DNA of 46,227 nt from a bacterium (lineage in GTDB: Bacteria > Zhuqueibacterota > Zhuqueibacteria > Oceanimicrobiales > Oceanimicrobiaceae): positions 1-46,227 of the forward strand of contig JBHHXT010000019.1 in NCBI GenBank assembly GCA_046757165.1. Reading direction: 5' to 3'. Of the stretch, positions 4,718 through 33,156 are shown piece by piece. Under the pieces are notes generated by a model. The model worked only from the letters and a program-made list of their open reading frames with translations, ran no database searches and was not told the origin of the DNA. The position numbers were made by a program, and so were the translations under genes. Position 1 is the first letter of the stretch, and every line of letters begins with the position of its first letter.

Positions 4718-4720
4718 TGT

Positions 4721-6826: not shown

Positions 6827-6834
6827 TTGCCCAT

Positions 6835-14485: not shown

Positions 14486-14594
14486 ATTCTAACTCCTTTC
14501 GGGTAAACTTCGGCAGTTGGCTGTTGGCCTCGAGCTTGCTGATAAGGTTATTTGTCATCTCTTATTTTTTGTTCAACTGCTCAACAGCGGCCCC

Positions 14595-15185
14595 TCAATA
14601 CGAAAGATAAAGCAACGGAAACAGGAAAATCCAAACGACGTCAACGAAATGCCAGTACAGCCCTGCGTATTCCACCCGCTGCTGCGTTCTCGGCCAGAGC
14701 GTGCCTCTGACGGCCATAACGAAGAGCGCAAAGTTTGCGATAATGCCTGCCAGGACATGCAGGCCATGCAGCCCGGTCAAGGCGTAATAAAAGGCCCAAA
14801 ACATGCCGGACAGCGGCGTGAATCCCTGAGAGATTTCTATCGAGTATTCAACCGCTTTGACGCCCAGGAATGTCACTCCGAGTAAGACCGTGAACAAAAG
14901 GTAGGTCCGGGCCGACTTCCTATCTTCTTCGTCAATCGCCTGAAAGGCTTTTACCATGGTCAAGCTGCTGGTGAGCAGAATGACGGTATTGAAGGTGCCA
15001 ATTGCTGTGCTAACATGCTGAGCCATGTCAGCCCACGTGCCGGCACTGGCCATGCGGTAGAGAATATAGATCGCCAGGAAGCCGCCAAATACCATGATTT
15101 CAGAGGCTAAGAACCACCAGAGCGCGATTTTGCCTGACGGCGCTTGAGTTTGCGGATATTCCTCAACGGCGGAAACGGTGCCCAT
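14595..15185 (-). CDS. ctaE: Heme-copper oxidase subunit III (first paralog)
   Basis: WWFLASEIMVFGG, NTVILLTSS, TGLHGLHV, GLYWHFVDVVW. Confidence 0.92.
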   Translation of the reverse strand: MGTVSAVEEYPQTQAPSGKIALWWFLASEIMVFGGFLAIYILYRMASAGTWADMAQHVSTAIGTFNTVILLTSSLTMVKAFQAIDEEDRKSARTYLLFTVLLGVTFLGVKAVEYSIEISQGFTPLSGMFWAFYYALTGLHGLHVLAGIIANFALFVMAVRGTLWPRTQQRVEYAGLYWHFVDVVWIFLFPLLYLSY

Positions 15186-15243
15186 TCTGCTATCTCCCTT
15201 GTCTTAACATTAACGGTTCGGGTTTATTCTTCTTCAAGCTATG

Positions 15244-15322
15244 TCTGGTTCCAACGCTCTGCGTCCCTTTACTTGACGCGGAGCGTCAAATACTGGTTCC
15301 CACGCGGAGCGTGGGAACCAGA
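15244..15322. repeat. REP-like palindrome cluster between oxidase subunits I and III
   Basis: CTGGTTCCCACGC-GGA-GCGTGGGAACCAG (15293-15321), TTGACGC-GGA-GCGTCAA (15273-15289) and a partial copy at 15244. Confidence 0.7.
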
Positions 15323-15368
15323 CCGTGTAGGTGCGTGATCATCATACACCAAATCCTGCACCGAAGGA

Positions 15369-17102
15369 CTAGGCCGCGGCCGCGGTTTTCTTCGGTTCAT
15401 TCTGCGGCTGCCAATCCCGGCCATTGCCAGGCGAACTGTACTCGTACGGGCCATGATAAACCCTGGGCAGGGTAGCAAAATTGCCATGAGGGGGCGGCGA
15501 AGGCGCAGCAGCCCACTCCAGCGTGTTCGCCTGCCAGGGATTATCCTCCGCTCGTTTCCCTTTGAACAGGCTCCAGAAGAAATTGATCACAAAGGGAATC
15601 TGCCCGATGAAAAGCAGAATCGCGGCGATGGTGATGAGCTGATTGATCGGGCCAAAGGGCTTGAGAAAGTCATATTGCAACGGGTTGTAAATACGGCGCA
15701 TGTGGCCACCCATGCCCAGCACGAACATCGGGATAAACGTCAGGTTGAAAAAGATGATCGTAAACCAAAAATGGATTTTCCCGAGCCCCTCGTTCATCAT
15801 GCGGCCAAACATTTTCGGGAACCAGAAGTAGAGCCCGGCGAAGCCAGCCAGAAGGGCTGACGGAAAAAGGGTAAAATGAAAGTGAGCGACGACAAAATAA
15901 GTATCGTGAATGTAGATATCCACCGGCGCCGAGCCATTGAATATGCCTGTCACCCCACCGACGATGAACGTCAGAATCGTGCCGAGCGCAAAGAGCATCG
16001 GTGTGGGAAAACGCAGTGAACCGCCCCATAGCGTTGCCATGAAAGCAAAGATTACGATGGCAAATGGAACCGAGATCAGGATGGTGGTAATGCTGAAGGG
16101 CATCACCAACCGTGGGTCTATGCCGCTGACGAACATGTGATGCGCCCAGACCACGAAGCTGAGAACCCCGGCCACCAGGACTGAGTAGATAATGGTTTTG
16201 TACCCGAAAATCGGCTTGCGAGCAAATACTGGCAAGATTTCGAACAAAGCGCCCAGGCCGGGCAACAGGATCACATAAACCTCCGGATGCCCAAAAAACC
16301 AAAACAGATGCTGCCACAACAACGGGTCCCCGCCTCGATCAGCGATGAAGAACCCGGTGCCAACTGTACGGTCCAGCAGGAGCAAAATCGCCCCCGCGAT
16401 AAGCGGGCCGACGGACAGCATAAAAAGAACCGATGCAGTGATCTGCATCCAGACCATCAGGGGCAACCGGTACATCGTGAGGCCGGGGGCCCGCATGGTG
16501 ATGGTGGTAGTGAGGAAATTGATGCCGCCCATCAGGAAGGAGGTAAATTCCAACGCCAGTCCCAGTATCCAGAGATTCAGGCCCCAATTCACTCCCGTGA
16601 GCACGGGGTCTGCTGATAAGGGTGCGTAGCCCGTCCAACCAGCGGCCGCCGCACCCCCCGGGACGAAAAAGGAGGCGATCATCAACACCGAGCCGAGAAA
16701 GATAGTCCAGAAAGACATCATGTTTAGCCTCGGAAAGGCCATATCCGGTGCGCCAACCATCAACGGCAGCAGAAAGTTACCGAAGGCGCCCAGCAACAAT
16801 GGCATGGCGACGAAAAACACCATCAGGGTACCGTGCATCGTCACCAGTGCGTCATAGAATTCCGGCGGAATGATGCCGTTGACCACCGTCGGTTCCGGAA
16901 TCCAACCGGCACCGGGGACCGCAGTTTCAGGCCACGCGAGCTGCCAGCGCATGTAGTAGGCCAGCAGACCGCCAACGACAGCCATAAACAGGCCGAGAAA
17001 CATGTACTGCTTGGCAATGACTTTGTGGTCGATCGAAAAAATGTACGTGCGAAAAAAACTCAGCTCCTTGTGCTCAGCCGCGTGACGGACCTCGTCAGCC
17101 AT
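15369..17102 (-). CDS. ctaD: Heme-copper oxidase subunit I, A1 type, with atypical K-channel
   Basis: TMHG, PDMAFPRLN, WFFGHPEVY, WAHHM, AHFH and MRR: all six His ligands and the active-site Tyr are present. Confidence 0.96.
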   Translation of the reverse strand: MADEVRHAAEHKELSFFRTYIFSIDHKVIAKQYMFLGLFMAVVGGLLAYYMRWQLAWPETAVPGAGWIPEPTVVNGIIPPEFYDALVTMHGTLMVFFVAMPLLLGAFGNFLLPLMVGAPDMAFPRLNMMSFWTIFLGSVLMIASFFVPGGAAAAGWTGYAPLSADPVLTGVNWGLNLWILGLALEFTSFLMGGINFLTTTITMRAPGLTMYRLPLMVWMQITASVLFMLSVGPLIAGAILLLLDRTVGTGFFIADRGGDPLLWQHLFWFFGHPEVYVILLPGLGALFEILPVFARKPIFGYKTIIYSVLVAGVLSFVVWAHHMFVSGIDPRLVMPFSITTILISVPFAIVIFAFMATLWGGSLRFPTPMLFALGTILTFIVGGVTGIFNGSAPVDIYIHDTYFVVAHFHFTLFPSALLAGFAGLYFWFPKMFGRMMNEGLGKIHFWFTIIFFNLTFIPMFVLGMGGHMRRIYNPLQYDFLKPFGPINQLITIAAILLFIGQIPFVINFFWSLFKGKRAEDNPWQANTLEWAAAPSPPPHGNFATLPRVYHGPYEYSSPGNGRDWQPQNEPKKTAAAA

Positions 17103-17116
17103 ACTCTCCTCCTCAT

Positions 17117-17800
17117 TTAGTTGTCATTATCTGCAGGTTGCCAGTTCTCCTGCACCCAACTGGCGTAGGCTTGCTCAGAATGAACATAAAGAAAGCCGCG
17201 CATGGTGTAATGGCCATATCCACACAACTCGGCGCAAGCGATCTCATACTTGTCGGTTTCGGTCGCCTGGAACCAGGCTTCGATTTCACGGCCAGGCACC
17301 AGGTCCTGCTTCAGGCGCAGAACCGGGACAAAAAAACTGTGGATAACATCCTGGGAAGTGAGAATAAGCTTCACCACTTTGTTGGCCGGCACGTGAAGGT
17401 CGTTCTCCAGCGTGAGATCGTCGTCGCTACCAAACATGCCGTCCGGCCCGGGGTAGGTCATGATCCAGTTGAACTGCTTGCCCTCCACTTGAATGGTCAC
17501 CGCGCTGACTGGCATGTCCCCTTTGATTTGGTCATAGGCTTTCGCGCCGGCAAAATCAATCCACAGGTCGAACACGAGCACGATGGCAGCTGGAATCAAG
17601 ATCCAGCCCGTTTGTGGCCACGCCCTGCCGTGCACAAATTTCGCCCGCTGCCCCTCTCGACGACGGTACCGAAACAGAAAATAGAAAATCAATCCCTCGC
17701 CTAGCAGAAATCCGATTCCGACGATCCAGAAGATCAGATAGAACACCGAGTCAATCTCACCGCCAAAGGTCGAGATGTTCTGCGGGAACAAATCAAACAT
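17117..17800 (-). CDS. ctaC: Cytochrome c oxidase subunit II (CuA), no fused cytochrome c
   Basis: Two TM helices; DVIHSF and CAELCGYGHYTM CuA motif. Confidence 0.95.
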   Translation of the reverse strand: MFDLFPQNISTFGGEIDSVFYLIFWIVGIGFLLGEGLIFYFLFRYRRREGQRAKFVHGRAWPQTGWILIPAAIVLVFDLWIDFAGAKAYDQIKGDMPVSAVTIQVEGKQFNWIMTYPGPDGMFGSDDDLTLENDLHVPANKVVKLILTSQDVIHSFFVPVLRLKQDLVPGREIEAWFQATETDKYEIACAELCGYGHYTMRGFLYVHSEQAYASWVQENWQPADNDN

Positions 17801-18103: not shown

Positions 18104-19285
18104 CTATTGGGCCTCATGACAGTAGCCGCAGAACCCTGCGCCCGCCTGGCGTGTGTTGGTATGACAGGAGTAGCACAGGGCATTGTCATCATCATGCAGA
18201 GACGCGTCATCCCCGATCTGGTCTGCGAAGCCCGTCTCGTGGGTTTTGGGGTTGGTCCCCTGCACGCCGTCAAAATCGGTGTGGCAGAGTAAACAGGTGG
18301 GATCATCCCCCTCGGTGCTATGGCAGGCCGCGCAATTTTCAATGTCTCGCCTGGCGAGCTCAGCATGGCGGCCGCCGCCGGTGCCGACGACCCCTGCAAG
18401 TGCCCCCCAATCGGGCCCGCCATGCCAGACAGGTTTGCCCGCCACGTCCACGCCTTCGGCTTCGTGGCACGTCTGGCAAAAATTCTGAGTTTCGTGACAG
18501 ACGGCACACTCCTGCGACCGGCCCTGCGCTTCAAGAGGATGAGTGAGTCTAAAATTGAGATCGTGCACGCGGGAGATAAGCAGACCCTTTGTGCCCCCGC
18601 CAAGCGAGGGGAACATCGGTGTTTGTGTATCGAGCACGGGCGCCGAGGCCGTCATGAACAAAGACGCCCCCTGATGACACTCTGCGCAATCGTTTCGCGT
18701 GTGACAAACGCTGCACGCCTCCTGATCGATACGGGCCAGATTTTTGTGTGTCACAAGATAATCCGAGCTATGGTCAACCGGCCTGAGGGTGAGGGTATTG
18801 GTGTGGCAGTTCACGCACTCGAGTGTCGCCTGCTGGTTGTTGTGACACCTGGCGCAGTCTGGCATCTGTGCCTTACTGTGATCGTCAGCGTAGTCTACCC
18901 TGTCCAAATTCTTGTGGCAGGTTTCGCAGGCCACTTTCTGCTCGAGAACATGAAATTCATGGTTGAACAGAAGCGTGTTTTCGACAGCGGGCAGCGGCTG
19001 CCGGGTCTCCTCGTCCTCGAAATGGCAGAGCGTGCACGCTTCTTCATCCTCGACCTCATGGCATCCCTGACACTCTTCCTTTGCAGGCAGCAAATTATCG
19101 CTGGCCAGCGTGCTCTGCTCAGCACGGGTATGACAATCCGCACAAGCTGTCTCTACCTCCTTCTGGTGAAACTTGTGCGAAAATTTGATCACTTCTTTTG
19201 ATTGCTTCAGCGGACTTTGGGATAAAACGTGCCAGCTAAGTGCCAATGTGATGGTTATCACTCCCAACCAGAACTTGTTCAGCAT
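18104..19285 (-). CDS. Periplasmic 14-heme cytochrome c (c3/c7-like repeats)
   Basis: Signal peptide; 14 CxxCH counted; FSHKFH and FNHEFH distal-His motifs. Confidence 0.9.
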   Translation of the reverse strand: MLNKFWLGVITITLALSWHVLSQSPLKQSKEVIKFSHKFHQKEVETACADCHTRAEQSTLASDNLLPAKEECQGCHEVEDEEACTLCHFEDEETRQPLPAVENTLLFNHEFHVLEQKVACETCHKNLDRVDYADDHSKAQMPDCARCHNNQQATLECVNCHTNTLTLRPVDHSSDYLVTHKNLARIDQEACSVCHTRNDCAECHQGASLFMTASAPVLDTQTPMFPSLGGGTKGLLISRVHDLNFRLTHPLEAQGRSQECAVCHETQNFCQTCHEAEGVDVAGKPVWHGGPDWGALAGVVGTGGGRHAELARRDIENCAACHSTEGDDPTCLLCHTDFDGVQGTNPKTHETGFADQIGDDASLHDDDNALCYSCHTNTRQAGAGFCGYCHEAQ

Positions 19286-19345
19286 AATCCCTCACCGGTT
19301 TGCCTCAGATTCGTTTTCTTCCTCATCATGTCCCTGCTCGACAGC

Positions 19346-20614
19346 TTATAAGCTGCGCTTGAAAAACCAATAGCTTGCTTTGACAAAGATTCGAAAATCG
19401 CTGCTCGAGAACCGATTGCGGATGCCCTGGCCGAGGATGTCGATGGCAAGCTGCTTGCGCGGACGGTAGTTGAGACCGACACTCCCGGTCAGGGAGGTGT
19501 GGGTCTCGAGGTCGTCATCGAACAGCGTGTAACGAGCCAGCCCGGTCGTGGCTACCAGTCCCAGTTTCGGTGTCACGGGATAATTCAAGGCGGCGTATGC
19601 GCCGTTGTTTTGGCCGCCATACCCTTTTCTGAAATTGTAGCCGAGCGAGCCGTACTTTCCTCTAACGCCCAAACCAAAACGAACCGTTTCGTCGCCGTCA
19701 TATTTTTGAACGGCGAGATTTCCGTTCAGGAACCAGCGCTGGCCGAACCGGTAACTGCCGCGCACGCCGAACTCCTGTGTGGTGTTTTGCTCAAACACCG
19801 TGAAGATGGAATTTGCTTCGATGAGTGGTGCACGGTGGATAAATTCACCACTCAATGTCAGTTTATCAGAAGCTGCCAGCCGGAGTTCAACCTGCCCGCG
19901 GCGAACACGCTCTTGCTCGAGGTCATAATCGAGCCGGCCATAGAGGTTCAACTTGCGCGCGAAACGCCGGTGGAGGTCCAGGCCAAGCAGCCGTTGCTCC
20001 AAACTCTCGAAGGTGATTTTTCTGCCGGTATACCGACCGGGCGCTGAGTAAGCAGCAGGCGCCCGGTTTCTTTGCATGAAACTAACCAGGACCTTCGTAC
20101 CGGCCAGCTTCGTGGTACTCACCCGGAAGCCGAACGCATGTCGGTCATCCCAGTTGCCGATTTCGATTTCATTCGAAAACGGCACCAGGATGCCTGCGAA
20201 GCCTCCTATCTTGACACTCTCTCCGATGCGGAAGTTGAGATCGATGCCGTCAACGGTGCCGTATGCAACGCCAGAATAGACCCGCTGCCGACCCAGGCGA
20301 ACACGCTGGACCAGGCCCTTGCGTGCGTGCCACTGAAGGTAAGTGTGATAGATTCGCGGAATGGGATCGTCCTCCGCGGACTTTGCCAAATCTTGTGACA
20401 GCAGGCCATAAAAGTGAAAAGACACGCGCCTGGAAGCAAGATTCCCAATGGTGACCTGTGCTGTTTGGTACACCCGTGCGTGCGTCTCGGAAAGCGAGTC
20501 TGCCGGGTTTCTCTCCCAGGAGTAGACCGTGGTGGAGAAGCGACCACTCACCGACTGCCCATAGACCTGCGTGGTCAGAGCTAACGCGAGCAAAATGTAG
20601 ATCAATCTCTTCAA
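19346..20614 (-). CDS. Outer-membrane beta-barrel (porin of a porin-cytochrome complex)
   Basis: Signal peptide; amphipathic strands throughout; RVRLGRQ..VDG motif; terminal strand RIFVKASYWF; flanked by two multiheme cytochrome genes. Confidence 0.8.
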   Translation of the reverse strand: MKRLIYILLALALTTQVYGQSVSGRFSTTVYSWERNPADSLSETHARVYQTAQVTIGNLASRRVSFHFYGLLSQDLAKSAEDDPIPRIYHTYLQWHARKGLVQRVRLGRQRVYSGVAYGTVDGIDLNFRIGESVKIGGFAGILVPFSNEIEIGNWDDRHAFGFRVSTTKLAGTKVLVSFMQRNRAPAAYSAPGRYTGRKITFESLEQRLLGLDLHRRFARKLNLYGRLDYDLEQERVRRGQVELRLAASDKLTLSGEFIHRAPLIEANSIFTVFEQNTTQEFGVRGSYRFGQRWFLNGNLAVQKYDGDETVRFGLGVRGKYGSLGYNFRKGYGGQNNGAYAALNYPVTPKLGLVATTGLARYTLFDDDLETHTSLTGSVGLNYRPRKQLAIDILGQGIRNRFSSSDFRIFVKASYWFFKRSL

Positions 20615-20671
20615 GACCCTGGTCCCCTTTCTTATGTGTGAAGTGCGTCGTACGTCCGACTCACCTTATTT

Positions 20672-20826
20672 CTTGCGCCTCCTGGCTGCAAAGGGAGGCG
20701 CAAGGTCGTCAAGGAGGTAGATAATGAATTGAGCAGCATTGAGCTTCACTCGTCATTTGTTGTCACTTGCCTTGCGGGCGTCATTGAGCAGGCAAGGACC
20801 AAATGACGCCCGCAGGGCAAATGACG
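20672..20826. repeat. Two strong intergenic hairpins
   Basis: 11-bp perfect stem 20672-20682/20694-20704; 19-bp stem with one mismatch 20767-20785/20802-20820. Confidence 0.65.
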
Positions 20827-20901
20827 GCGCGAAGCGCTAAATGACTTTTTTCGCAGCAAAGTCTGCAAAAAAACCCAGGCTCTCTCTGGTCAGGACGCCC
20901 G

Positions 20902-21771
20902 TCAAAACATGGGGAATTCCTGACCAAAAACATTGACCAACCCGTTTGCGTGTTTGCTTTTGTCACTGATGTTTCCTTGTGAATCCATCACCAGGTTGTG
21001 ACAATTGACACAGGCGGTCAGCTCAAACGGGTTGTGCCCGGTGGGTGGCAAGTCATGGCACGTGCCACAGGTGACCGTTTCAGGGTTGGTCCACTCCGGT
21101 GAGGCCTGATTGCCTACGATGGAGTCAGCCGAGTAAATAAAGGCAAAGCTTGACTGTTCCTTTGCTAAACTCCAATTGCCATGACAGTAGACATTTTCAC
21201 AGGACAAGCTATTATCGTTCCACCGTGGCTCTGCCTCGTCGAGCAGCGCATTTTTGCTGAACACCACCTCAGCGGGTAATGGTGAATCGATGTGCTCGGG
21301 AGCGTCAAACGTCCCCGGAACGACGTGACAAGTCGAACAGTCGAAGCCATTGCTGAAAGATGCGCCAGAGAGATGAGGTGTATGGGCCCCCACGCCTCGG
21401 ACACCGCTGCTGAAGTTGTCTGCCAGATCTGTTGGGGGAGCGCCGGTTTGATTGTCGACACCGCCATGGCAGACCGTGCAATCCTCCGGCGTAGACGGAT
21501 GACAGGTCAAGCATGAACGATTAGCGATCCCCCCGCTGTAATCGACACCGTGACACTGCTGACAGTTTGCCAGATCCCATCCTGAGCTTTGCAAGAATAC
21601 GCCGTGAAATTCCGGTGCGCCATCGCTTATCCAGTCCCGGGGGTGAACGGACAGTTCTGGTTCCAGATTAGCCGGGACGGGTTCTCTCAGTTCGCTGCAT
21701 CGGTTGAGAAAAAGAGCCAGAAAGAACCATGGGAAAATGAGCCGCAAATCCATTCTGATGTGCATGGTCAT
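20902..21771 (-). CDS. Multiheme cytochrome c, probable lipoprotein, CxxxxCH/CxxCH (Geobacter-type) domain
   Basis: Six CxxCH plus CENVYCH; hydrophobic stretch ending FLNR-C. Start uncertain (21810, 21771 or 21753). Confidence 0.85.
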   Translation of the reverse strand: MTMHIRMDLRLIFPWFFLALFLNRCSELREPVPANLEPELSVHPRDWISDGAPEFHGVFLQSSGWDLANCQQCHGVDYSGGIANRSCLTCHPSTPEDCTVCHGGVDNQTGAPPTDLADNFSSGVRGVGAHTPHLSGASFSNGFDCSTCHVVPGTFDAPEHIDSPLPAEVVFSKNALLDEAEPRWNDNSLSCENVYCHGNWSLAKEQSSFAFIYSADSIVGNQASPEWTNPETVTCGTCHDLPPTGHNPFELTACVNCHNLVMDSQGNISDKSKHANGLVNVFGQEFPMF

Positions 21772-21899
21772 TCTATAAGTTATGTTCGAGTCACATTCCT
21801 GGCGCAACAAAGTCGCTCAGGCATCTTCTTGCAAGAAATCAAAAAGCAATAACATAGCAGCAATGTACAAGCGTTTCACCTCGATGTTCGGCATTCAAA

Positions 21900-24268: not shown

Positions 24269-24497
24269 GTTTCTCGCCTCTTTGCAGTCCGACGAACACA
24301 TAAGTCAGGATGGCTGCCAGGGTAAAAAAAACCGGGATGGCGACGATGCTGATGCCAACAGAAGCGTTGAGCGCATCGTTGAGTCTGTGCGCCACACGAA
24401 TCAGGTTGAAAATCCAAACAGCCACGCTCGAGACAAAAACCCAGATCAAGGACACAGAGGCAAGTTGGAGAAAATAAATTGTGTTTGACCGTTTCAT
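24222..24497 (-). CDS. Small 2-TM membrane protein, possible accessory subunit
   Basis: ATGA overlap with the NrfD-family stop; two hydrophobic helices. Confidence 0.65.
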   Translation of the reverse strand: MKRSNTIYFLQLASVSLIWVFVSSVAVWIFNLIRVAHRLNDALNASVGISIVAIPVFFTLAAILTYVFVGLQRGEKHDHFGAGKNEIHPEE

Positions 24498-25861
24498 TGC
24501 TCCACTCCTGCTCGTTTGCTCGCGGACTCCGGCAAAGGCTGCTCAGGCAAATACGATTGCAACCGGCTGGCAACTTCTCGCACACTGTGTTGCCGGCCTT
24601 CCTGAATTTCCCAAATTGAAACCAACGGAAAGTACTTGGAGAATAAAACATAGCCCAGAACAAACACCGCAAGGCCCCAGGCAAAGAGACTCCACTCGGT
24701 GAGCGAGGGGATGTACATTCCGGTCGGATAGGGTAATCTTGGATTCGCCAGAGACGGCACGACAATGATGAGGCGCTCCAGCCACATGCCGATCACAACG
24801 GCAATCGAGGCCACCAGAATCCCCGGAATCTTCTGTGTTTTCGGGTTGGCGAGAATGGTTATCGGAACCACGAAATTGCAAAAGATCATCAGCCAGAAAA
24901 ACGGCGACATCTTTCCGACGAACTTGTAGAGGAACACTCTCATCTCGTTAGGCTCGTGCCCGTAATATCCCGTCAGATATTCAGAGAAAGTAAAATAGCC
25001 CCACAACATCGACATGATCAGCAGCAGCAGCCCCAAATACTTGAAATGAATCTCTTTCAGGTAGGGCTCCAGCTTGAATGCCTTGCGAAACGCAATCATG
25101 GCAATCAACAAGGCCGCGATACCGGAGAAAATGGCGCCGACCACAAAATAGGGACCGAAAATCGTGCTGTGCCAACCGGGCTGAATGGTCATAGAAAAGA
25201 TGAACGAAATGACTGTGTGAACAGAAACGGCAATCGGAATCACCATGACCATCAGGATGTTGATGGCTCTTTCGAGCACTTTCTTCTGGTGTTCCGTGCC
25301 CTGCCAGCCCCAGGCCAGGAATTCGTACAGCCAGCGGGGCCGCGTGCCGCGATCCCGCAGGATGGCGATATCCGGAATCATGGGAAGATACAAATAGACC
25401 GTACTGGCGCCAAAATAAGCGGTGATACTGGTCACATCCCAGAGCAGGGGGGACTGCAGCCGCCCATCGGTGAAAAGATGCATCATGCGGTCAGGCCGGC
25501 CCAGATCGAGGATGGGATGCAGGCCTCCGATCGCCAAAACGATGGCCGTGATGACCTCTGCCATCCGGGTGATCGGACGCCGCCATTCCGCTTTCGAGAG
25601 TCTCAGAATCGCCGAAATCAGGGTTCCAGCATGGCTGATACCAATGAAGAAGACGAAGTTGATAATATAAAACCCCCAGGAGACGGGCTGATTGAGCCCG
25701 GTGACGCCGAGGCCAAGCACAACTTGCCTGATGTAAGTATAGACAGAGAAAGCGATGATGGCTAACAGGACACAAACCGTGATGTAAAACCCCTTGCCCG
25801 TGTGCTCGATGGGACGTATCAGCACTTCATCTTCGAATGAATCCTTGCGCAGTTCAGACAT
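24494..25861 (-). CDS. nrfD: NrfD/PsrC-family quinone-interacting membrane subunit (ActC/QrcD-like)
   Basis: WGFYIINFVFFIGISHAGTLISAIL, WRRPITRMAE, DLGRP, SPLLWD, SVHT, GMWLER. Confidence 0.92.
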   Translation of the reverse strand: MSELRKDSFEDEVLIRPIEHTGKGFYITVCVLLAIIAFSVYTYIRQVVLGLGVTGLNQPVSWGFYIINFVFFIGISHAGTLISAILRLSKAEWRRPITRMAEVITAIVLAIGGLHPILDLGRPDRMMHLFTDGRLQSPLLWDVTSITAYFGASTVYLYLPMIPDIAILRDRGTRPRWLYEFLAWGWQGTEHQKKVLERAINILMVMVIPIAVSVHTVISFIFSMTIQPGWHSTIFGPYFVVGAIFSGIAALLIAMIAFRKAFKLEPYLKEIHFKYLGLLLLIMSMLWGYFTFSEYLTGYYGHEPNEMRVFLYKFVGKMSPFFWLMIFCNFVVPITILANPKTQKIPGILVASIAVVIGMWLERLIIVVPSLANPRLPYPTGMYIPSLTEWSLFAWGLAVFVLGYVLFSKYFPLVSIWEIQEGRQHSVREVASRLQSYLPEQPLPESASKRAGVEQ

Positions 25862-26545
25862 TTATTCCACCTCTGACAGATAAAAAACTTTCGGTTCGGT
25901 GCCCAAATCTTCCAGCAATTGAAAGGCGCGCGGGTTTCTCCTGAGCTTGCTGACCTGGCTTTTGGGATCGTCGAGATCGCCAAAGTAAATCGCTCCGGTC
26001 GGGCAGCTTTCCATACAGGCCGGGATGTAATCTCCCTCTCGCAGCTCGCGGCCTTCAACAGCAGCCTGCTCTTTGGCTATCTGCAACCGGTGAATACAAA
26101 AGGTACATTTTTCCACCACGCCGGCCGGGCGCAGCGACACATCCGGATTGCAGGCCGCTCGCATTTCCTCCGGCCATTCGGGTCGGCTCCAGTTAAATGA
26201 TTTCACCGTGTAGGGACAGGCGACCTGGCAGTATCGACAGCCGATGCATTGCGGAAAAATCTGCGTGACGAGGCCCTCATCATTGAGATAGGTCGCACGA
26301 ACCGGACACACTTTGGTACACGGCGGGTTATCACATTGAAAACAGGGCCGAGGCATGTAGCGGACTTTCACATCAGGAAATTCCCCCTCGTAAGTCGTGA
26401 GGATATCCATCCAAAGCATGGTGCGCCCGCGGTCCGATTCATCCGGCCCGACGATGGCGACGTTGTTTTCGATCTTGCAGGCCGCGACACATTCCCCGCA
26501 GCCGGTGCACTTGTTCAAATCGATGACCATACCCCATCTTGGCAT
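25862..26545 (-). CDS. 4x[4Fe-4S] ferredoxin subunit (NrfC/PsrB/QrcC-like)
   Basis: Start MPRWGMVIDL at 26545; CTGCGECVAAC, CFQCDNPPCTKVCP, CIGCRYCQVACP, CTFC...CMESCP. Confidence 0.93.
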   Translation of the reverse strand: MPRWGMVIDLNKCTGCGECVAACKIENNVAIVGPDESDRGRTMLWMDILTTYEGEFPDVKVRYMPRPCFQCDNPPCTKVCPVRATYLNDEGLVTQIFPQCIGCRYCQVACPYTVKSFNWSRPEWPEEMRAACNPDVSLRPAGVVEKCTFCIHRLQIAKEQAAVEGRELREGDYIPACMESCPTGAIYFGDLDDPKSQVSKLRRNPRAFQLLEDLGTEPKVFYLSEVE

Positions 26546-26546
26546 A

Positions 26547-29030
26547 CTAGGCTCTCTCCTTTCCGGTGACTTTTTCGATCGCAATCTTCGTACTGATCAG
26601 CGAAGGAGCGCCACGCAAGTAATCATAGTCCTCCACAACAATCTCATAGGGATTGACACCGATGCCTCTGGCATATCGCCCATAAGCTGAATGACCCAGC
26701 CCGAAAGGAATATAGGCGACCTCAGGCATGACCCCGGGGAGTATCTTTGCCTGGACCAGTAGACTGCCTTCCGAAGAAGTCACTTTGACCATGTCACCGT
26801 CGTGAATCCCATAGCTGTGGGCGGTTTCCGGATTGAGCTCAATCCAGGACTGCCAGTACTCGCGCGTGAGCAATCCAAACAATTCTTGCACCAAAGGCAG
26901 GTTGCTCCCCATGCCATTGACGTTGGTAATCAAATGATAGGTGAGCAAATGCAGATCAAATCGCGCGCCATTTTTTGAGGCCGCAGGGGGTTCATAGTGC
27001 GGCAGGTAGACAAGATCGCCACGCGCATCTATTTGCCAGCGCTGCAACAGCGAATCAAGGGCGCTCTCGAACCCATCCGACTGCCGGATTTTCGATTCGA
27101 TCTCGTGTTTCAAAACCTGCGAATAGAATTCAAACCTCCTGGAAGGTGTCGCAAAGACCTTGTCAAAGTCCGGCTCCTGCGGAAAGGGATCGAGCCATCC
27201 CCCTTTTTCAAGCAGAACCTCCCAGAACTCTTCAAAGCCGGTATAGTCAAACAACTGCCACCCCCGTTCTTTCAGGAATGTCAGCCAGGCCTCGTCCATA
27301 CGCTCGGTGAAAACGGTGCCTGCGCCGGTCTTGTATACGCCCTCTAAGCGCGTTTGGAGATACGCTTTGTAGTCCGGCCAGGGCAACGCAGAGGCCAGCG
27401 TCCCGCCCAGACGCTTGGCCATGCCCAGTATAGAGTCTCCCAGGTGACGGCTGTCGTACAAAGGCTCGATCACCGGTTGTTGCATGCCAAAATGGGAGAA
27501 CTCCACCAGGGGAATATTATCGATGACGTCAAACTTCTCCAGGAAGGTATGGTCGGGCAGAATCAGGTCCGCGTACAGGGTGGTCTCATCCACAAAGGGC
27601 GAAAAGCTTACGATGAACGGAATGTTGTGTAGCGCCTCAACCACGCCACCCTGATTGGTAGAATGAAACACTGGATTAGCCTCTGCCAGAAGCAGAACAT
27701 CCACAGGCACCTGCTGTTTTTCGGAGATGAACTTCGGTAGATTGACCGGTGTCTCGCCCGAAAAACAGAATCGATCATCCAGCTCGGTGAGCCCGGGTCT
27801 GGCCAGACCCGACCGCGCTACTTTGTCCGGCTCGAGTTTCGACAATTCTGCAAACGGCGGGGGCTTCTGCAGAGAGATAGGCTTTCCATTCGCGAAATTG
27901 CCTTTCAGGGCATTCAAACACTCGACAGCCCAGGCCGTGTAAAGGCCCTTGTTGCTGCTGTGGGCCTGTCCGCCGGACAAAGCCAGAGCAGAGCCCTCAG
28001 CGCCAAACTCCCTGGCCAGCTCAACGATTCTCTCTGCCGAAACGGATGTTATTTCGGCCACCTTCTCCGGATAATACTCTTGCGTGACCAGAGACTTGAA
28101 CCCCCGGTATGAATTCCCGGCATCATCCTGCCAGTCATAAAACCCAAAGCACCTGTCTTGCACGAAGTTCTTGTCGTACCGGCCATCCTTGATCAGGACG
28201 CTCGCGATGCCCAGAGCTAAAGCCGCCATGGTCCCGGGTTTGATGGCAACCCATTTATCAGAAATGCCGGCAGTGCGCGAAAGACGAGAGTCGATGTGGA
28301 CAATCTTTGTCCGCTGTCCATTTTCGCGATTTCTGAGCTCGGAATAGAGTTGATTGAAGCGAACCGGGGATGGGCCAACATCCAGCACATCCGCCCCAAA
28401 GTTGATCAACAGCCTGATGGTTTTGAAATTGTAACTGAGAGGCTTCTTATGACCTTGTGTGATATAGGTTGCCAGGGCTGAGATGTCCCCGGATTCAGAA
28501 ACAAATAAATTCGGCGACCCGAACCCGGACATGAATCTCGAGAGCAAGTCGGAGAGCAGGGTGTTCACATGACCGGACCAAAATGCGAGCTTGTGTGTTT
28601 CATCTTTCTGCTGTAGCGCCTGCAACCGGGAGACAACCATCTGCATGGCCTCCTCCCAGGAGATGCTCTGCCACTGTCCCTCGCCACGACTGCCAACGCG
28701 TTTCAGCGGTGCTTTGATGCGGTCCGGATTGAATAACGCTTCGATGCCGGCTTCGGCCATCGGACAGATGCTGCCCCGGTTCACCGGATGAATTGGATTG
28801 CCCAGAATCCGCACTGGAATCCCGTCGATGAGACGGACCTTGATCCCGCAGCCGCCCGGACAAAGTGTGCAGACACTGGTTTTCCAGGTTTCAAGGCGGG
28901 GGGCGCCTCCAACTTTTTCGTACAGCTCATCCGGCACCGACCATATCGAATCGCAGCCCAGTCCTGCCATCGCAGCGCCGGCAGTGGTGAGGCCGAGGTA
29001 TTGCAAGAACTCTCTACGAGTGATCTCCAT
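26547..29030 (-). CDS. Tat-exported molybdopterin-oxidoreductase-family subunit (QrcB/ActB1/PsrA-like)
   Basis: TRREFL Tat motif; CX2CX3CX27C FS0 motif; PDRIKAPLKR; ADLILPDHTFLE; C-terminal ELNPETA..GIHDGD domain. Confidence 0.9.
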   Translation of the reverse strand: MEITRREFLQYLGLTTAGAAMAGLGCDSIWSVPDELYEKVGGAPRLETWKTSVCTLCPGGCGIKVRLIDGIPVRILGNPIHPVNRGSICPMAEAGIEALFNPDRIKAPLKRVGSRGEGQWQSISWEEAMQMVVSRLQALQQKDETHKLAFWSGHVNTLLSDLLSRFMSGFGSPNLFVSESGDISALATYITQGHKKPLSYNFKTIRLLINFGADVLDVGPSPVRFNQLYSELRNRENGQRTKIVHIDSRLSRTAGISDKWVAIKPGTMAALALGIASVLIKDGRYDKNFVQDRCFGFYDWQDDAGNSYRGFKSLVTQEYYPEKVAEITSVSAERIVELAREFGAEGSALALSGGQAHSSNKGLYTAWAVECLNALKGNFANGKPISLQKPPPFAELSKLEPDKVARSGLARPGLTELDDRFCFSGETPVNLPKFISEKQQVPVDVLLLAEANPVFHSTNQGGVVEALHNIPFIVSFSPFVDETTLYADLILPDHTFLEKFDVIDNIPLVEFSHFGMQQPVIEPLYDSRHLGDSILGMAKRLGGTLASALPWPDYKAYLQTRLEGVYKTGAGTVFTERMDEAWLTFLKERGWQLFDYTGFEEFWEVLLEKGGWLDPFPQEPDFDKVFATPSRRFEFYSQVLKHEIESKIRQSDGFESALDSLLQRWQIDARGDLVYLPHYEPPAASKNGARFDLHLLTYHLITNVNGMGSNLPLVQELFGLLTREYWQSWIELNPETAHSYGIHDGDMVKVTSSEGSLLVQAKILPGVMPEVAYIPFGLGHSAYGRYARGIGVNPYEIVVEDYDYLRGAPSLISTKIAIEKVTGKERA

Positions 29031-29090
29031 ACAATCGCTCCTGAATCTGGCTCTTATTCGTCATGGTCTAATCCACCACCTGTCCTCAAG

Positions 29091-29585
29091 TCAACGGTGA
29101 CACGCATAACAATCATTGGAAACCTCGCGCGTTTCATGACAATCCATGCACCATGCCATCGTTATTTCCTGAACGGGTGCGCCCACCGGCGTTGTCAGGG
29201 TTCCGACGTCGCCATGGCAGACCGTACACTCCAACTCGCCAAGCCTGACGTGCCGGCGATGAGAGAAGTAGGCGTAGTCCGCCACGCGATAGATTTGCCG
29301 CCAGGGGATTTTCGTCTTTTCGGTAACAAATTGAAGTAACGCCAGTTCTGCCTCGCTTTCGGTCATGGCTTCCTCATGGCACTCGGCGCAAAGATCGATA
29401 TTCGGGATAGAAGCCCGTGGATTCTCTTCGGCGTATTGATGGCAGTCCAGGCACTCCATGTCATTCTCTTCTACATGTATGCTGTGGCTGTAGGCAATGG
29501 GCTGCTTCGTGTCCTGCCTTTTGAGGAACCCGGCTACCATGAATGTCAACACAACGGCGAGAACAATGGATAGGGTCTTTTTCAT
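29091..29585 (-). CDS. Membrane-anchored pentaheme cytochrome c (ActA/QrcA-like)
   Basis: N-terminal TM; QPIAYSHSIH; five CxxCH; FSHRRH; TMAWCMDCH; NDCYACH. Confidence 0.92.
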   Translation of the reverse strand: MKKTLSIVLAVVLTFMVAGFLKRQDTKQPIAYSHSIHVEENDMECLDCHQYAEENPRASIPNIDLCAECHEEAMTESEAELALLQFVTEKTKIPWRQIYRVADYAYFSHRRHVRLGELECTVCHGDVGTLTTPVGAPVQEITMAWCMDCHETREVSNDCYACHR

Positions 29586-29696: not shown

Positions 29697-32600
29697 CTAC
29701 TTGACCAGGGCCATTTTCTTTATCTCGCTAAAGCCATTGACTGACAGCTTGTACAGGTAGATGCCGGAGCTCAGGTTGGCCGCCCCAAAATCGATCGTGT
29801 GCGCACCAGCGTCCAGGTTCTCATCCACCAGTGTTGCGACCTCCTGACCCAGCAGGTTGTAGATTTTCAGAACCGTGTGACCCGCATCGGGAAGACTGAA
29901 CGTAATCGTTGTCCTCGGATTGAACGGATTGGGATAGTTCTGATTCAACGCGTAGGTCCCGGGGATCTGCGGGCCCGTTTCAGACACGCTGCTGATCAGG
30001 GGGAAGTTCAACGTGTAGACGGTAGCATCGAAGCCATCCCCCGGGTGCCCGGAGCCTTCGTTGTCAAATATCTCAGTCGCAAACTGGACTGAACCCTCTG
30101 AAACGACGCTAAAATCATCGCCATCGCTGGTCAAGGCTCTCTTGAATTCAACCGTCCAGACGCCATTATCATATTTCCCGGCAGCATGAACAGAAGCGCG
30201 ATTTCCGGTAGGCAGGGCCAGGATTCTACCCGGAATAACCGCACCGGTGGCAAATGCGGCCGTGCTGTCAAATTCAACTGCCAGCTCGGTGGTGCCGGGC
30301 GAGACGCCAAAAGGATCGAATGCGTTGAGCGCATCCTGGTCCGCCATCAGGAACGTAACATTCGCGCCCGGGTCTGTAGCGGCCATGAAGCTGGGAAATC
30401 CGGAGCCGACCGGCAGATTCTTCGAATCAATGCCGCTGCCCGCGTCGCCGTGGCGGCCGGTGGTGTCCCAGAATTTGTCATCCGCGAACCCCAGCGGATT
30501 GGTGCGCGCGGCCTTCCAGTGCCAGACATCAACCTTCCCGACCTGCGTCTGCATGGCGATTCCCTGATGGCACATGGTTGTGCAATTCGCGCCATCGTCG
30601 CCGTTCTGGCCCATATCCCAAATAATGCCGACCCGGTCTTCATCGCCGGCCTGACTCCAGCTCGTCCCGTCGAAACTCCACTGGGCCTTGTTCACATTTT
30701 CTGTCGAACTCTTGTCCGGCCATTTCGCCAATACATAAAGATAATCCGAGTCCACCATGGACTTGATCGTCAAGCCTTTGGCGGTCGTGATCATGTCCGA
30801 GGTCCACTCGCCGTTCGCCTCGACACCATCCAGAGTGGGGGTGCCGATTGTGGCGGTGAGGGAATTATCAGAGGGCAACTGCGGAAAATTCATGGTGAAA
30901 ACCGTGGCGTCAAAGCCATCTCCAGGATGGCCAGAGCCCTCATTGTCAAAAATCTCGGTAGAAAAATCTACCGACCCGCCCGGAACAACTTCGAAGTCGT
31001 CGCCATCGCTGACCAACGGTCTGGAGAATTCGACGGTCCACTTGCCATTGTCATACTTGCCAGCCACGCGAACAGATGCACGATTTCCTGTTGGCAAACT
31101 CAGGATTCTGCCCGGGATGACCGCTCCTGCGGAAAATGCCGCCGTGCTGTCAAACGCCACCGCCACCTCAGCCGTACCCGGCCCAACGTTGAAAGGATCG
31201 AACGCGTTCAACGCCTCCTGATCGCCCATCAAGAAATCTACATTCCCGCCCGGGTCGGAGGTCGCCATGAAGCTCGGGAATCCGGACCCGACCGGCAAAT
31301 TCTTTGTATCGATACCGGAGCCCGTATCGCCGTGGCGACCCGTCGTGTCCCAGAATTTGTCGTCAGAATAACCTAATGGATTCGTGCGGGCAGATTTCCA
31401 GTGCCAAACATCCACCTTGCCGATTTGTGTCTGCATGGCAATCCCCTGATGGCACATGGTCGTACACGTCGCGCCATCGTCGCCGTTCTGCCCCATGTCC
31501 CAGATGATGCCAACGCGGTCCTCATCGCCTGCCTGACTCCAGCTCGTGCCGTCAAAGCTCCACTGACTCTTGGCAATGTTTTCGGTCGAGCTCTTGTCCA
31601 TCCACTGAGCAAGGACATACAGATTGTCCTGGTCGATCATCGCCTTGATGGTCAACCCCTTCTCGGTCGTAATCATATCGGAAGTCCACTCGCCCGGAGA
31701 GTCAACCCCGTCCAAATTCGGAGATCCGATTGCGGCCGTCAGGGAGGTTTTGGGCGTAGAGGGCGTCGGGAATTGCATGGTGTAAACCGTGGCATCAAAC
31801 CCATCACCCGGGTGACCAGAGCCCTCATTGTCAAATATCTCGGTAGAAAAATCTACCGACCCGCCCATGACCACGTCGAAATCATCTTCATCCCCATCCA
31901 GCACCCGGCGGAATTCCACGGTCCAGATGCCATTGTCGTACTTCCCGGCCGCGTGCACCGAAGCGCGATTGCCGGTGGGCAAGCTCAGAATTCTGCCGGG
32001 AATGACGGCTCCGGCGGAAAATGTCGCGGTGCTGTCAAACGCCACCGCCACCTCAGCCGTACCCGGCCCAACGTTAAAAGGATCGAACGCATTCAACGCA
32101 TCCTGGTCACCCATCAAAAAATCTACATTCGCGCCCGGGTCGGAGCCCGCCATAAAGCTCGGGAATCCCGACCCGACCGGCAAGTTCTTTGTATCGATAC
32201 CGGTGCCCGTGTCGCCATGACGGCCAGTCGTATCCCAGAATTTATCGTCCGAGTATCCCAAGGGATTCGTGCGGGCGGATTTCCAATGCCAAACGTCTAC
32301 CTTGCCGATTTGTGTCTGCATGGCAATCCCCTGATGGCACATCGTCGTACACGTCGGGCCGTCGTCGCCGTTCTGCCCCATGTCCCAGATAATGCCAACG
32401 CGGTCCTCATTCCCCGTCTGACTCCAGGCGGTTCCATCAAAGCTCCATTGGTTCTTGGCAGTGCTTTCGGATGAGGACTTATCAGCCCAGCTTGTCAGAA
32501 CGTAAAAATACGTCTCATCCACCATGGCCTGGATGGTCAACCCCGCTTGCGTGGTAATCGCATTCGAGGTCCACTCGCCCGCGGAGGCGACGCCATCCAA

Positions 32601-32702
32601 AACGGGTGTCCCCTCTGTGACATTGACCGTGGTTTGTGCCAAGAGACCGTAAGCCGATAGCAGCACGGCCACGACACTCAACAGTACCAGTTGCTTCTTC
32701 AT
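29697..32702 (-). CDS. Secreted protein: three ethylbenzene-dehydrogenase-gamma-like (DOMON) domains, each with CTTMCH, plus T9SS/FlgD-type C-terminal domain
   Basis: Three ~295-aa repeats (EDRVGIIW, CTTMCH, DVWHWK, WTVEF.R.L); tail ALNQNYPNPFNPRTTITF...SGIYLYKL...KKMALVK. Confidence 0.85.
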   Translation of the reverse strand: MKKQLVLLSVVAVLLSAYGLLAQTTVNVTEGTPVLDGVASAGEWTSNAITTQAGLTIQAMVDETYFYVLTSWADKSSSESTAKNQWSFDGTAWSQTGNEDRVGIIWDMGQNGDDGPTCTTMCHQGIAMQTQIGKVDVWHWKSARTNPLGYSDDKFWDTTGRHGDTGTGIDTKNLPVGSGFPSFMAGSDPGANVDFLMGDQDALNAFDPFNVGPGTAEVAVAFDSTATFSAGAVIPGRILSLPTGNRASVHAAGKYDNGIWTVEFRRVLDGDEDDFDVVMGGSVDFSTEIFDNEGSGHPGDGFDATVYTMQFPTPSTPKTSLTAAIGSPNLDGVDSPGEWTSDMITTEKGLTIKAMIDQDNLYVLAQWMDKSSTENIAKSQWSFDGTSWSQAGDEDRVGIIWDMGQNGDDGATCTTMCHQGIAMQTQIGKVDVWHWKSARTNPLGYSDDKFWDTTGRHGDTGSGIDTKNLPVGSGFPSFMATSDPGGNVDFLMGDQEALNAFDPFNVGPGTAEVAVAFDSTAAFSAGAVIPGRILSLPTGNRASVRVAGKYDNGKWTVEFSRPLVSDGDDFEVVPGGSVDFSTEIFDNEGSGHPGDGFDATVFTMNFPQLPSDNSLTATIGTPTLDGVEANGEWTSDMITTAKGLTIKSMVDSDYLYVLAKWPDKSSTENVNKAQWSFDGTSWSQAGDEDRVGIIWDMGQNGDDGANCTTMCHQGIAMQTQVGKVDVWHWKAARTNPLGFADDKFWDTTGRHGDAGSGIDSKNLPVGSGFPSFMAATDPGANVTFLMADQDALNAFDPFGVSPGTTELAVEFDSTAAFATGAVIPGRILALPTGNRASVHAAGKYDNGVWTVEFKRALTSDGDDFSVVSEGSVQFATEIFDNEGSGHPGDGFDATVYTLNFPLISSVSETGPQIPGTYALNQNYPNPFNPRTTITFSLPDAGHTVLKIYNLLGQEVATLVDENLDAGAHTIDFGAANLSSGIYLYKLSVNGFSEIKKMALVK

Positions 32703-32790: not shown

Positions 32791-33156
32791 TCAGGCTAGA
32801 GCTCTGATGATGGTTTCTCTTAGCGTAAGCAGATTCACCGGCTTCATTGCATAGTAGATGACCCCTTCCTGCAATACTCTCCCCCCCAGTTCCGTTGACG
32901 GATCATTGGAAATCACAACAAGCGGTATCTTTGGCCTGATTCTGCGAATGATCTTTACCATTTTGAGGCCGTCCAGCTGCGAACTTTCCAGGCTGTAGAT
33001 GACCACACCATAATCGTGCTCCAGGAGTTCGAGAAGCAAATCAGCTTCATTATCGACTCTGCAAAAGCCGATGTCACGGTCCGCCAGCGAGGCCACAAGG
33101 GTGTTGCAAAGGTCTTGGTCCTCGCAAAAAGCCAGAATTCTTGCCTCCACAATCAA
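32791..33156 (-). CDS. Single-domain response regulator, atypical (pseudo-receiver)
   Basis: REC pattern with LDGLKMVK, VVIS and YAMKP, but the phosphoacceptor position reads VVIYS rather than D. Confidence 0.75.
   Translation of the reverse strand: MIVEARILAFCEDQDLCNTLVASLADRDIGFCRVDNEADLLLELLEHDYGVVIYSLESSQLDGLKMVKIIRRIRPKIPLVVISNDPSTELGGRVLQEGVIYYAMKPVNLLTLRETIIRALA

Follow-up and report, generated by a model that had tools for sequence, protein, structure and literature searches.

A candidate type IX-exported cytochrome with three CX3CH-DOMON repeats in a bacterium of the phylum Zhuqueibacterota

In the present study, we analyzed a stretch of 46,227 nucleotides from a bacterium of the phylum Zhuqueibacterota (assembly GCA_046757165.1, contig JBHHXT010000019.1, positions 1 to 46,227), referred to below as the window, with a focus on a gene for a protein of 1001 amino acids (aa) at positions 29697..32702. 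The open reading frame (ORF), together with Pfam and NCBIfam matches, revealed a leader, three DOMON domains of the EB_dh type with one CX3CH motif each, and a type-A C-terminal domain of the T9SS (type IX secretion system). A predicted Sec-type signal peptide, recognized by eye and devoid of a lipobox Cys, occupied aa 1-22 (32637..32702, on the reverse strand like every part of this gene), and the mature part of homologues began at the same Q. The three repeats followed at aa 23-314 (31761..32636), aa 318-609 (30876..31751) and aa 612-903 (29994..30869), and the sorting domain was located at aa 923-997 (29712..29936). The motif CTTMCH started at aa 118, 413 and 707 (window positions 32351, 31466 and 30584), with spacings of 885 and 882 bp that agreed with a first-pass annotation of this DNA; its codons covered 32334-32351, 31449-31466 and 30567-30584. 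Each repeat further contained a Met just behind the motif (Met128, 32319-32321; Met423, 31434-31436; Met717, 30552-30554) and a loop His (His297, 31812-31814; His592, 30927-30929; His886, 30045-30047). The same annotation had called the repeats near-identical, which was an overstatement, as their identity was 77-82% in protein and 71-81% in DNA. WHWK, GRHGD and GSGHP occurred once each per repeat, and the repeat region was acidic (121 D+E and 49 K+R; isoelectric point about 4.2). All six Cys of the whole protein lay in the CX3CH motifs and a motif scan of the 1001 aa found no CxxCH, so that scans restricted to CxxCH would overlook the protein, as had been anticipated.

The EB_dh family (PF09459) matched three times, with 254.3 bits against a gathering cut-off of 33.3, and each single repeat passed as well. 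The proposed C-terminal sorting domain was confirmed by both PF18962 (Por_Secre_tail; 36.8 bits, cut-off 27) and TIGR04183 (38.8, cut-off 23). As a chance control, 125 other tail-bearing ORFs of the genome held together only one CX3CH in about 128,000 residues; therefore, the CX3CH triplet did not arise by chance. The three-repeat structure was not an assembly artefact, because contigs from four hydrothermal-vent runs of one study tiled the three repeats without joints (no single piece covered the entire three-repeat stretch, and one of the four runs was possibly the source) and because independent three-repeat homologues were found (P0049/L014 and P0051/L017). It was observed that the repeats clustered by genome in a tree, with a support of 98 for the window and 99 for L014, and the same held for L012, L024, L027 and L030. 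Since the repeats grouped in this way, copy numbers of one to three arose repeatedly or were homogenised by conversion, and the three copies differ in dosage from a single-domain protein and do not form a family of their own. The closest named homologues, which make KSB1 the probable host, belonged to KSB1 metagenome-assembled genomes (MAGs; L014 and L015, 72-74%), an unclassified MAG (L012) and a MAG labelled Nitrospinaceae (L013). The last of these carried a 75%-identical homologue cut at its 3' end together with another tailed gene, had no SprA match, and may owe this contig to mis-binning or transfer.

To describe conservation, 302 distinct domain segments were cut around a DxWxWKxxR anchor from 212 proteins and from the ORFs of 77 loci, a selection that makes the anchor look more conserved than it is and covered all but 23 of 150 representatives. 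In these segments, Cys413 was conserved in 295 of 298, and both Cys417 and His418 in all 298. Upstream of 142 anchors, 137 motifs were found, every one with exactly three spacer residues (CX3CH); the remaining five anchors comprised three truncations and two single-Cys forms without the first Cys (P0122 and P0205). Passages in several reports treat CX3CH as a recognised heme motif (PMC11492766, PMC6295460, bioRxiv 2025.05.29.656830). A c554-like gene of the same cluster (22394-22984) also encodes a CX3CH; for 12 of 14 orthologues, a canonical CxxCH stands at the aligned site. The genome contained CcmF- and CcmC-like matches over cut-off with neighbouring CcmE, CcmA and CcmB identified by eye, which corresponded to cytochrome c maturation (Ccm) system I. 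Of the 15 tail-bearing genomes tested, 14 had CcmF_C; among 50 carrier genomes, 12 gave no CcmF_C match, several of them being small or incomplete, or perhaps using another system. Together with the fusion proteins described below, these results suggested that CX3CH is a probable heme c attachment site, in agreement with the earlier proposal. Separately, tandem paralogue pairs of the Desulfobacterota type were observed (L057, L062, L064, L068, L070, L072, L074, L076, L077, L079, L080, L082, L086 and L088), in which one member lacked the Met and kept the loop His, the other lacked both, and both kept CX3CH. Two other EB_dh proteins of the genome (G000:C75:3690-5312(-) and C112:7423-9132(+)) combined a di-heme c part, EB_dh and a C-terminal membrane anchor without CX3CH, and they were located in similar gene clusters.

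A structure model of repeat 2 reached a mean pLDDT (predicted local distance difference test) score of 93.9 from a 43-row alignment. This model matched EbdC (PDB 2ivf_C) with Z 18.6 and a root-mean-square deviation of 2.4 Å over 182 residues, and NXR-C (PDB 7b04_C) with Z 18.2 and 2.6 Å over 192 residues, with CBM9 sugar-binding domains behind them (Z 13.2). Foldseek agreed, and the earlier assignment to EbdC-type DOMON domains was upheld. A search of the ESM Atlas returned EB_dh clusters only. A phmmer search of the PDB with one repeat gave zero matches, and profiles were needed to recognise the relationship. The CX3CH motif lay on a helix (model residues 96-100), and the domain was about 80 residues longer than EbdC. 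In the profile alignment, Met423 corresponded to EbdC Met108 and NXR-C Met155, NXR-C carried the same WHWK at residues 165-168, and His592 fell about four residues ahead of NXR-C Lys305, in the loop carrying that Lys. Accounts of the two proteins describe each as a soluble partner of a Mo/FeS enzyme, a subunit of the type II Mo enzymes, with one non-covalent heme b ligated by Met/Lys, with a potential of +256 mV in EbdC (PMC8840923) and Met155/Lys305 as the ligands in NXR-C (PMC8387239). The window protein shares with them the DOMON-like fold, the Met position, the WxWK strand and the Pfam family EB_dh, whereas it adds CX3CH just before the Met, is triplicated, possesses its own leader and T9SS tail, and in all three repeats shows a distal loop with His but without Lys.

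The matches to TIGR03477 (type II DMSO-reductase gamma subunit; 44.7, cut-off 169.85) and TIGR03154 (Sulfolobus CbsA cytochrome b558/566; 26.5, cut-off 468.4) remained below cut-off. The adjacent MopB protein scored 153 against TIGR03479 (cut-off 985), which indicated an ArrA/QrcB-like protein instead of a type II alpha/beta partner. A distant fold match (Z 9.7) linked the repeat to the DOMON-fold heme domain of fungal cellobiose dehydrogenase (PDB 1d7c), which we take to be a secreted extracellular one-electron shuttle with Met/His ligation; unlike the window protein, this eukaryotic domain holds heme b and has no CX3CH. The full-length AlphaFold2 model had a mean pLDDT of 44 and a predicted template modelling score of 0.25, with the sorting domain as its best-confidence part; two-repeat homologues aligned out of register are probably the cause, and the model is uninformative on repeat packing. 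A predicted complex of two repeats with two hemes scored 0.02 without contacts and was not used as evidence.

The first-pass annotation had listed as possible distal ligands the Met, the WHWK Lys and the His residues of GRHGD and GSGHP, and these candidates fared differently. The GSGH His gave the best ligand model; the loop His592 was kept in 197 of 249 segments. WHWK is probably structural, because NXR-C has the same WHWK while its ligands are Met155/Lys305, and the GRHGD His457 was present in only 120 of 301 segments. Met423 was found in 232 of 301; its alignment with the Met ligands of EbdC and NXR-C spoke for it, and its absence from several clades against it. Both sites were covered by 227 segments, the 75 uncovered ones being dropped. 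The Met site held Met, His or Lys in 186 of the 227, and all 186 also had His, Met or Lys in the loop (Met site/loop: M/H 157, K/H 11, H/H 7, M/M 7 and M/K 4). Another residue stood at the Met site in 25 domains that kept the loop His and CX3CH, a few of these being alignment shifts, and 16 domains, mostly from one Desulfobacterota clade, lacked both Met and loop His. The fusion-type relatives lacked the Met in all 12 further domains and retained the loop His as well as CX3CH. Read most simply, each repeat would hold one heme c with predicted His418/His592 ligation, and the Met would be dispensable or serve as an alternative ligand; we assign this reading roughly an even chance. Met ligation with a displaced His is possible, and the CXXCHXM motif described for NrfH is a precedent (PMC8840924). 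Because the Met, apparently dispensable, was lost in several clades, a high potential is not assured, and its transfer from EbdC in the first-pass annotation was not upheld.

The main alternative to this ligand model concerns the cofactor count and fits either location of the protein: each repeat would bind two hemes (six in total), a heme c on CX3CH and an EbdC-type heme b between Met423 and His592. Provided that heme is bound at all, we consider this possible, though clearly the less probable count. The position of Met423 on the Met ligand of EbdC and NXR-C, that of His592 in the Lys-ligand loop, and the additional length of the domain are consistent with it. The ligand-like occupancy of the Met site, invariably paired with a ligand-type residue at the second site, weighs against a single heme with fixed ligands and favours two hemes or ligand switching; CX3CH was retained in 15 of the 16 double losses, which also suits two hemes. 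On the other side, no further conserved ligand for a separate heme c was seen besides WHWK, which is non-ligating in NXR-C, and the Met was lost with the loop His kept in two separate groups.

A check of the genome (99.98% complete) for the T9SS, as proposed earlier, was positive, with SprA, PorU and 16 PorV-family genes over cut-off. A PorZ-like match (129 and 127 bits in one frame) fell just under its cut-off of 260, and a PorP-like match was also present. By a regular-expression count, the tail motif occurred in at least 126 ORFs, many of them with adhesin- or hydrolase-like size. Related loci were collected from the best 80 of 379 candidates, which gave 77 loci, and SprA was compared in 73 genomes. 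The tail was carried by 16 of the 77 loci, all 16 in SprA-positive genomes; the tailed form occurred in none of the 37 SprA-negative genomes, three of which have only 3'-cut genes, and 20 SprA-positive genomes had lipoprotein, cut or other forms of the DOMON gene. By comparison across genomes, this distribution speaks for export. In a quick maximum-likelihood tree of 105 rows, for which the careful search was unfinished, Acidobacteriota members were nested inside the tailed clade and carried a different C-terminal domain; no SprA was found in the two nested Acidobacteriota genomes tested. In the Acidobacteriota homologues L020, L022, L023 and P0059 (aa 348-571), the T9SS tail was replaced by a DUF5719-like domain of about 220 aa (one tail examined), which also terminates other Acidobacteriota proteins and is possibly a lineage-specific sorting domain.

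The sister clade, mostly from Fidelibacterota, consisted of lipoproteins, and 11 of 12 members had at least two acidic residues at +2..+6, against a background of 14 of 93 crude lipobox ORFs in the window genome; the 13th member was frameshifted. This pattern resembles the surface-export signal described for Bacteroidetes (PMC5080379). One DOMON lipoprotein gene (L063:2-1483) was apparently split by a frameshift. Chloroflexota and archaeal members frequently had a C-terminal hydrophobic anchor (8 loci). According to the description in PMC7463736, SprA forms a 7-nm pore for folded cargo and PorU exchanges the tail for an anchor; because SprA takes folded cargo, heme attachment before export is feasible. 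The window protein shares the leader and the type-A tail with Bacteroidota T9SS cargo, and its genome the SprA, PorV, PorU and PorZ-like genes. In contrast, the cargo list given in PMC7463736 comprises proteases, adhesins, cellulases and S-layer proteins, with no cytochrome among them. The same genome encoded a 1981-aa protein with CBM96/PKD domains, a di-heme peroxidase/MauG-like part and a T9SS tail (L102:908-6850(-), G000:C125), a predicted second tail-tagged c-type cytochrome.

The DOMON gene was the second gene of a same-strand run with intergenic gaps of up to 374 bp, described here in gene order. First came a stand-alone receiver-domain gene (32791..33156, 88 bp upstream of the DOMON gene), whose homologue was a direct neighbour of the DOMON gene in 8 of the 12 relatives retrieved. 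Downstream lay a Qrc-like quartet (24494..29585): a pentaheme c with five CxxCH (29091-29585), which began 111 bp after the DOMON gene as the first-pass annotation had stated, a Tat-type MopB protein (26547-29030), a 4Fe-4S protein (25862-26584) and an NrfD membrane subunit (24494-25861). This order is that of QrcABCD and of the NrfD complexes resembling alternative complex III, and the first three subunits best matched QrcA, QrcB and QrcC. However, all four scored below the Qrc cut-offs of NCBIfam (104.9/180, 310.7/440, 304.2/400 and 44.5/570), NrfD was nearest to DsrP and MopB kept the FS0 cysteines, so that the quartet is only Qrc-like. The closest PDB relative of MopB was ArrA, and the segment aligned to ArrA HSSVC, whose Cys is presumably a Mo ligand, had no Cys and varied freely in orthologues; MopB is probably non-catalytic, like QrcB. 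Related five-heme/NrfD clusters of KSB1 and other MAGs are described in PMC10732223; those clusters include actD/ccoP, and the main text of that paper never mentions 'ethylbenzene'.

The run continued with a tetraheme class-I-type cytochrome (23006-24301), the c554-like cytochrome mentioned above, in which a motif scan found three CxxCH and one CX3CH as the fourth heme site, and a cyclic-nucleotide-binding protein (21900-22376). A putative porin-cytochrome conduit followed (18104..21810), made up of a 6-CxxCH cytochrome that is lipoprotein-like in homologues (20902-21810), a predicted beta-barrel, the porin (19346-20614), and a 14-CxxCH cytochrome (18104-19285). The porin had a weak Pfam match to OMP_b-brl below cut-off and no PDB relative by sequence search. 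The run ended with a heme-copper oxidase comprising subunit II, subunit I and two subunit-III-like genes (13507..17800); in the relatives examined, oxidase genes were not next to the DOMON gene, except for CoxC-like matches in L111. Direct sigma-54 control was considered and dropped, as no box with up to two mismatches was found within 1 kb upstream; 3 of 23 related upstream regions have one. Perfect sigma-54 boxes (TGGCAC-N5-TTGC) were located at 36434-36448 (-) and 37300-37314 (-), downstream of a sigma-54 activator gene (40905-42299), the former about 80 bp upstream of a gene for a protein with nine DUF5666 domains and a T9SS tail (33585-36356). A looser sigma-54 pattern was not above chance (6 versus 2.9 expected; 8 of 100 shuffles reached 6). 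At 2326-9613 (-), genes for a TackOD1-domain protein, a GT2 glycosyltransferase, an OEP/GH18-like fusion and an HlyD-like protein form a possible cluster for exopolysaccharide synthesis and export.

Among the relatives, Qrc-like orthologues stood beside 7 of the 16 tailed loci, and an eighth had only a distant NrfD complex. Of 18 loci with the lipoprotein form, 7 had a porin and a 14-heme cytochrome in the vicinity; the DOMON gene lay directly before the porin gene in L037, L059 and L063. We also surveyed fusions, that is, 14 stretches from 12 genomes with a domain match in frames of roughly 1000 aa. In 11 of the 12 relatives, at a similar place in the cluster, a module with seven CxxCH and one CX3CH was followed by a divergent, Met-less CX3CH-DOMON domain and a T9SS tail (L109:3774-6701(+), L111:4602-7577(+), L112:11546-14626(-), L113:2860-5865(+), L114:2557-5556(+), L115:8371-11250(-) and L118-L122), and the twelfth had two CxxCH/CX3CH-DOMON units and a tail. 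Because of this fusion, the DOMON domain must pass through Ccm maturation. The Qrc-like quartet was visible in 4 of the 14 stretches, and a porin was on the same contig in 9. The one multiheme module tested matched PDB 6i5b at 3e-18 over about 145 residues; this structure is OcwA, described as a cell-surface reductase of Thermincola potens (PMC6703420). OcwA and the window protein would thus both be cell-surface cytochromes, whereas OcwA, from a Gram-positive organism, is a nonaheme belonging to the NrfA family and the window protein has neither such a module nor CxxCH. As a target for experiments, these fusions are arguably preferable to the window gene.

Genes with at least four CxxCH and a tail numbered 17, in 14 stretches from 12 relatives, six of them beyond the 11 fusions, and predicted tail-tagged cytochromes are a recurring part of these gene clusters of the extracellular electron transfer (EET) type. 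This recurrence is the strongest support for heme c and for a surface function, and it goes beyond what the first-pass annotation had found. Other tailed multihemes with 4-16 CxxCH were observed at L110:5362-6930(+), L113:15431-17107(+), L113:1-1992(+), L114:1-1686(+), L115:4035-6836(-), L117:4211-5626(-) and L047:6662-9409(+), three of them directly upstream of a porin gene. The link between a DOMON domain and a porin-cytochrome EET cluster has a parallel in mtrA-DOMON of the Group 6 mtrCAB clusters (PMC8805035). That protein is a predicted periplasmic fusion with a nonaheme MtrA, and the passage describing it gives no CX3CH, T9SS tail or experiments; the MtrA module is absent from the window protein.

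The analysis covered anatomy, fold, conservation, gene content and co-occurrence, and its statements on heme, export and electron transfer are predictions. In the best explanation, which we give about an even chance of being right, the window protein would be a T9SS-exported three-heme c cytochrome with EbdC-fold domains at the outer face of an EET chain. The protein would leave the cytoplasm by the Sec pathway, as its leader suggests, and in the periplasm each repeat would very probably receive one heme at CX3C through Ccm system I. The heme may then occupy the EbdC pocket, ligated proximally by the CX3CH His and distally by the GSGH-loop His, an arrangement with equal chances for and against, and with similar confidence Met423, at the EbdC ligand position, would be displaced or serve as an alternative ligand. 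By extension from Bacteroidota, the folded holo-protein would, in all likelihood, pass through SprA/PorV, and PorU would cut the tail and anchor or release the protein. Outside the cell, its partners in electron exchange would fairly probably be minerals or dissolved redox species as well as the cytochrome-porin-14-heme conduit; with the same fair probability, periplasmic cytochromes would link this conduit to the oxidase and the Qrc-like quinone complex. Electron uptake is slightly favoured as the direction because the Qrc-like complex and the oxidase share one gene run and the habitat is a vent, whereas the OcwA-like modules of relatives favour reduction. More broadly, it is about an even bet that KSB1 and other bacteria of the Fibrobacterota-Chlorobiota-Bacteroidota (FCB) group export matured c-type cytochromes through a motor-divergent T9SS and thereby form a redox-active surface layer plugged into a porin-cytochrome conduit. 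The cargo proposed with it, at the same even level, would include CX3CH-DOMON repeats, OcwA-like multiheme-DOMON fusions, other multihemes and the di-heme peroxidase-like protein.

Several observations weigh against this explanation. A porin was on the contig of the tailed DOMON gene in only 2 of the 16 genomes, many of the contigs being short, so that the Qrc-like linkage was tighter than the porin linkage. Co-occurrence with a porin at the genome level (15 of 16) was rejected as evidence, given a background of 85 of 121; this sample of 121 genomes of the class, which overlaps the 77-locus set, had the DOMON domain in 28. An EET-type setting was found again in relatives. The claim in the first-pass annotation that the protein feeds the porin conduit remained plausible, though weakened, as the porin lies 9 kb away, is common in the class, and stands on another contig in the closest three-repeat relative. 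In 11 of 67 homologues, a scanned set chosen as long or fused, the domain formed the N-terminal sensor part of a kinase, GGDEF or HD protein (HisKA/HATPase, GGDEF, HD and PAS/GAF; P0101, P0104, P0107, P0112, P0131, P0140, P0154, P0166, P0180, P0206 and P0207); other scanned homologues carried PKD or fn3 domains. Many Desulfobacterota copies were untagged tandem paralogues without a tail or cytochrome neighbours. Because of these copies and the sensor fusions, the DOMON domain alone does not imply EET, and the sensor fusions may represent an undescribed class of heme c sensors. GldL, GldM and GldN were not found in the genome by a profile search whose built-in controls were also unmatched (GldK not searched), and the GldM model matched only 1 of 14 related genomes. 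The textbook motor is thus apparently absent or too divergent, which is the main caveat on export, and export outside Bacteroidota is an extrapolation, the T9SS being termed Bacteroidetes-specific in PMC7463736. In addition, the compared genomes are related, and the counts are not independent trials.

We further considered that the protein is an exported heme c protein with a ligand-binding or catalytic role, not a wire terminal, in which an acidic/Arg pocket beside the heme binds a small molecule or metal. The pocket residues E394, D395, D431, R439, D447, D448, D459 and N468 were 96-100% conserved (D431 and R439 partly through anchor selection), the 11 signalling fusions presumably bind in the same manner, the fold is common to CBM9 sugar-binding domains, and the domains without Met and loop His would have an open heme site. 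This role is nevertheless unlikely, in view of the redox genes around it in the majority of long loci from the tailed and lipoprotein clades and of the relatives that fuse the domain to a multiheme wire, and catalysis would in any case be compatible with electron transfer. Somewhat less likely again is a role in the periplasm, where the protein would carry or buffer electrons for the adjacent Qrc-like complex and its tail would be unused for export in this lineage. The tightest linkage, to the pentaheme/MopB/NrfD genes, would fit it, as would the soluble Mo/FeS partners EbdC and NXR-C and the unfound GldLMN motor; it is opposed by SprA, PorU, PorV and the 126 tailed proteins, by a tail that tracks SprA (16/16 versus 0/37), and by other lineages that swap the tail for other envelope signals. 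A disulfide or metal site at CX3C, with heme b only or no heme, is improbable: extracellular proteins often carry disulfides, P0122 and P0205 lack the first Cys, and CcmF_C escaped detection in some carrier genomes, but the His after the second Cys is invariant, the motif is helical in the model, and it co-occurs with canonical CxxCH chains in the fusions.

The Pfam family EB_dh is already known, and a DOMON-bearing MtrA has been noted once in the passage of PMC8805035 cited above. KSB1 respiratory clusters were surveyed in PMC10732223, whose supplementary table may list these genes. A literature search, whose coverage largely excludes subscription journals and can miss relevant papers, brought up neither a CX3CH-DOMON cytochrome nor c-type cytochromes exported by the T9SS, and a 2026 review of iron oxidation mentions neither T9SS, type IX nor DOMON (PMC13741234). 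The gene is real and combines CX3CH-DOMON with a T9SS tail in a new way within a known family. This family comprised 1,349 clusters at 50% identity (E <= 1e-10), only part of which was checked for CX3CH; it is annotated as 'ethylbenzene dehydrogenase-related' and overlooked by CxxCH counts, and it is possibly a large heme c domain family. A single 292-aa repeat offers a simple unit for studying the conversion of a heme b into a heme c pocket, a question that bears on the sensor kinases too. If the explanation favoured here is true, c-type cytochromes would join the cargo of the T9SS, and EET proteins would have a new way of being placed beyond the outer membrane. The phyla concerned, KSB1, Ignavibacteriota, Calditrichota and Rhodothermota, for which we found no characterised EET machinery, are common in sediments and vents.

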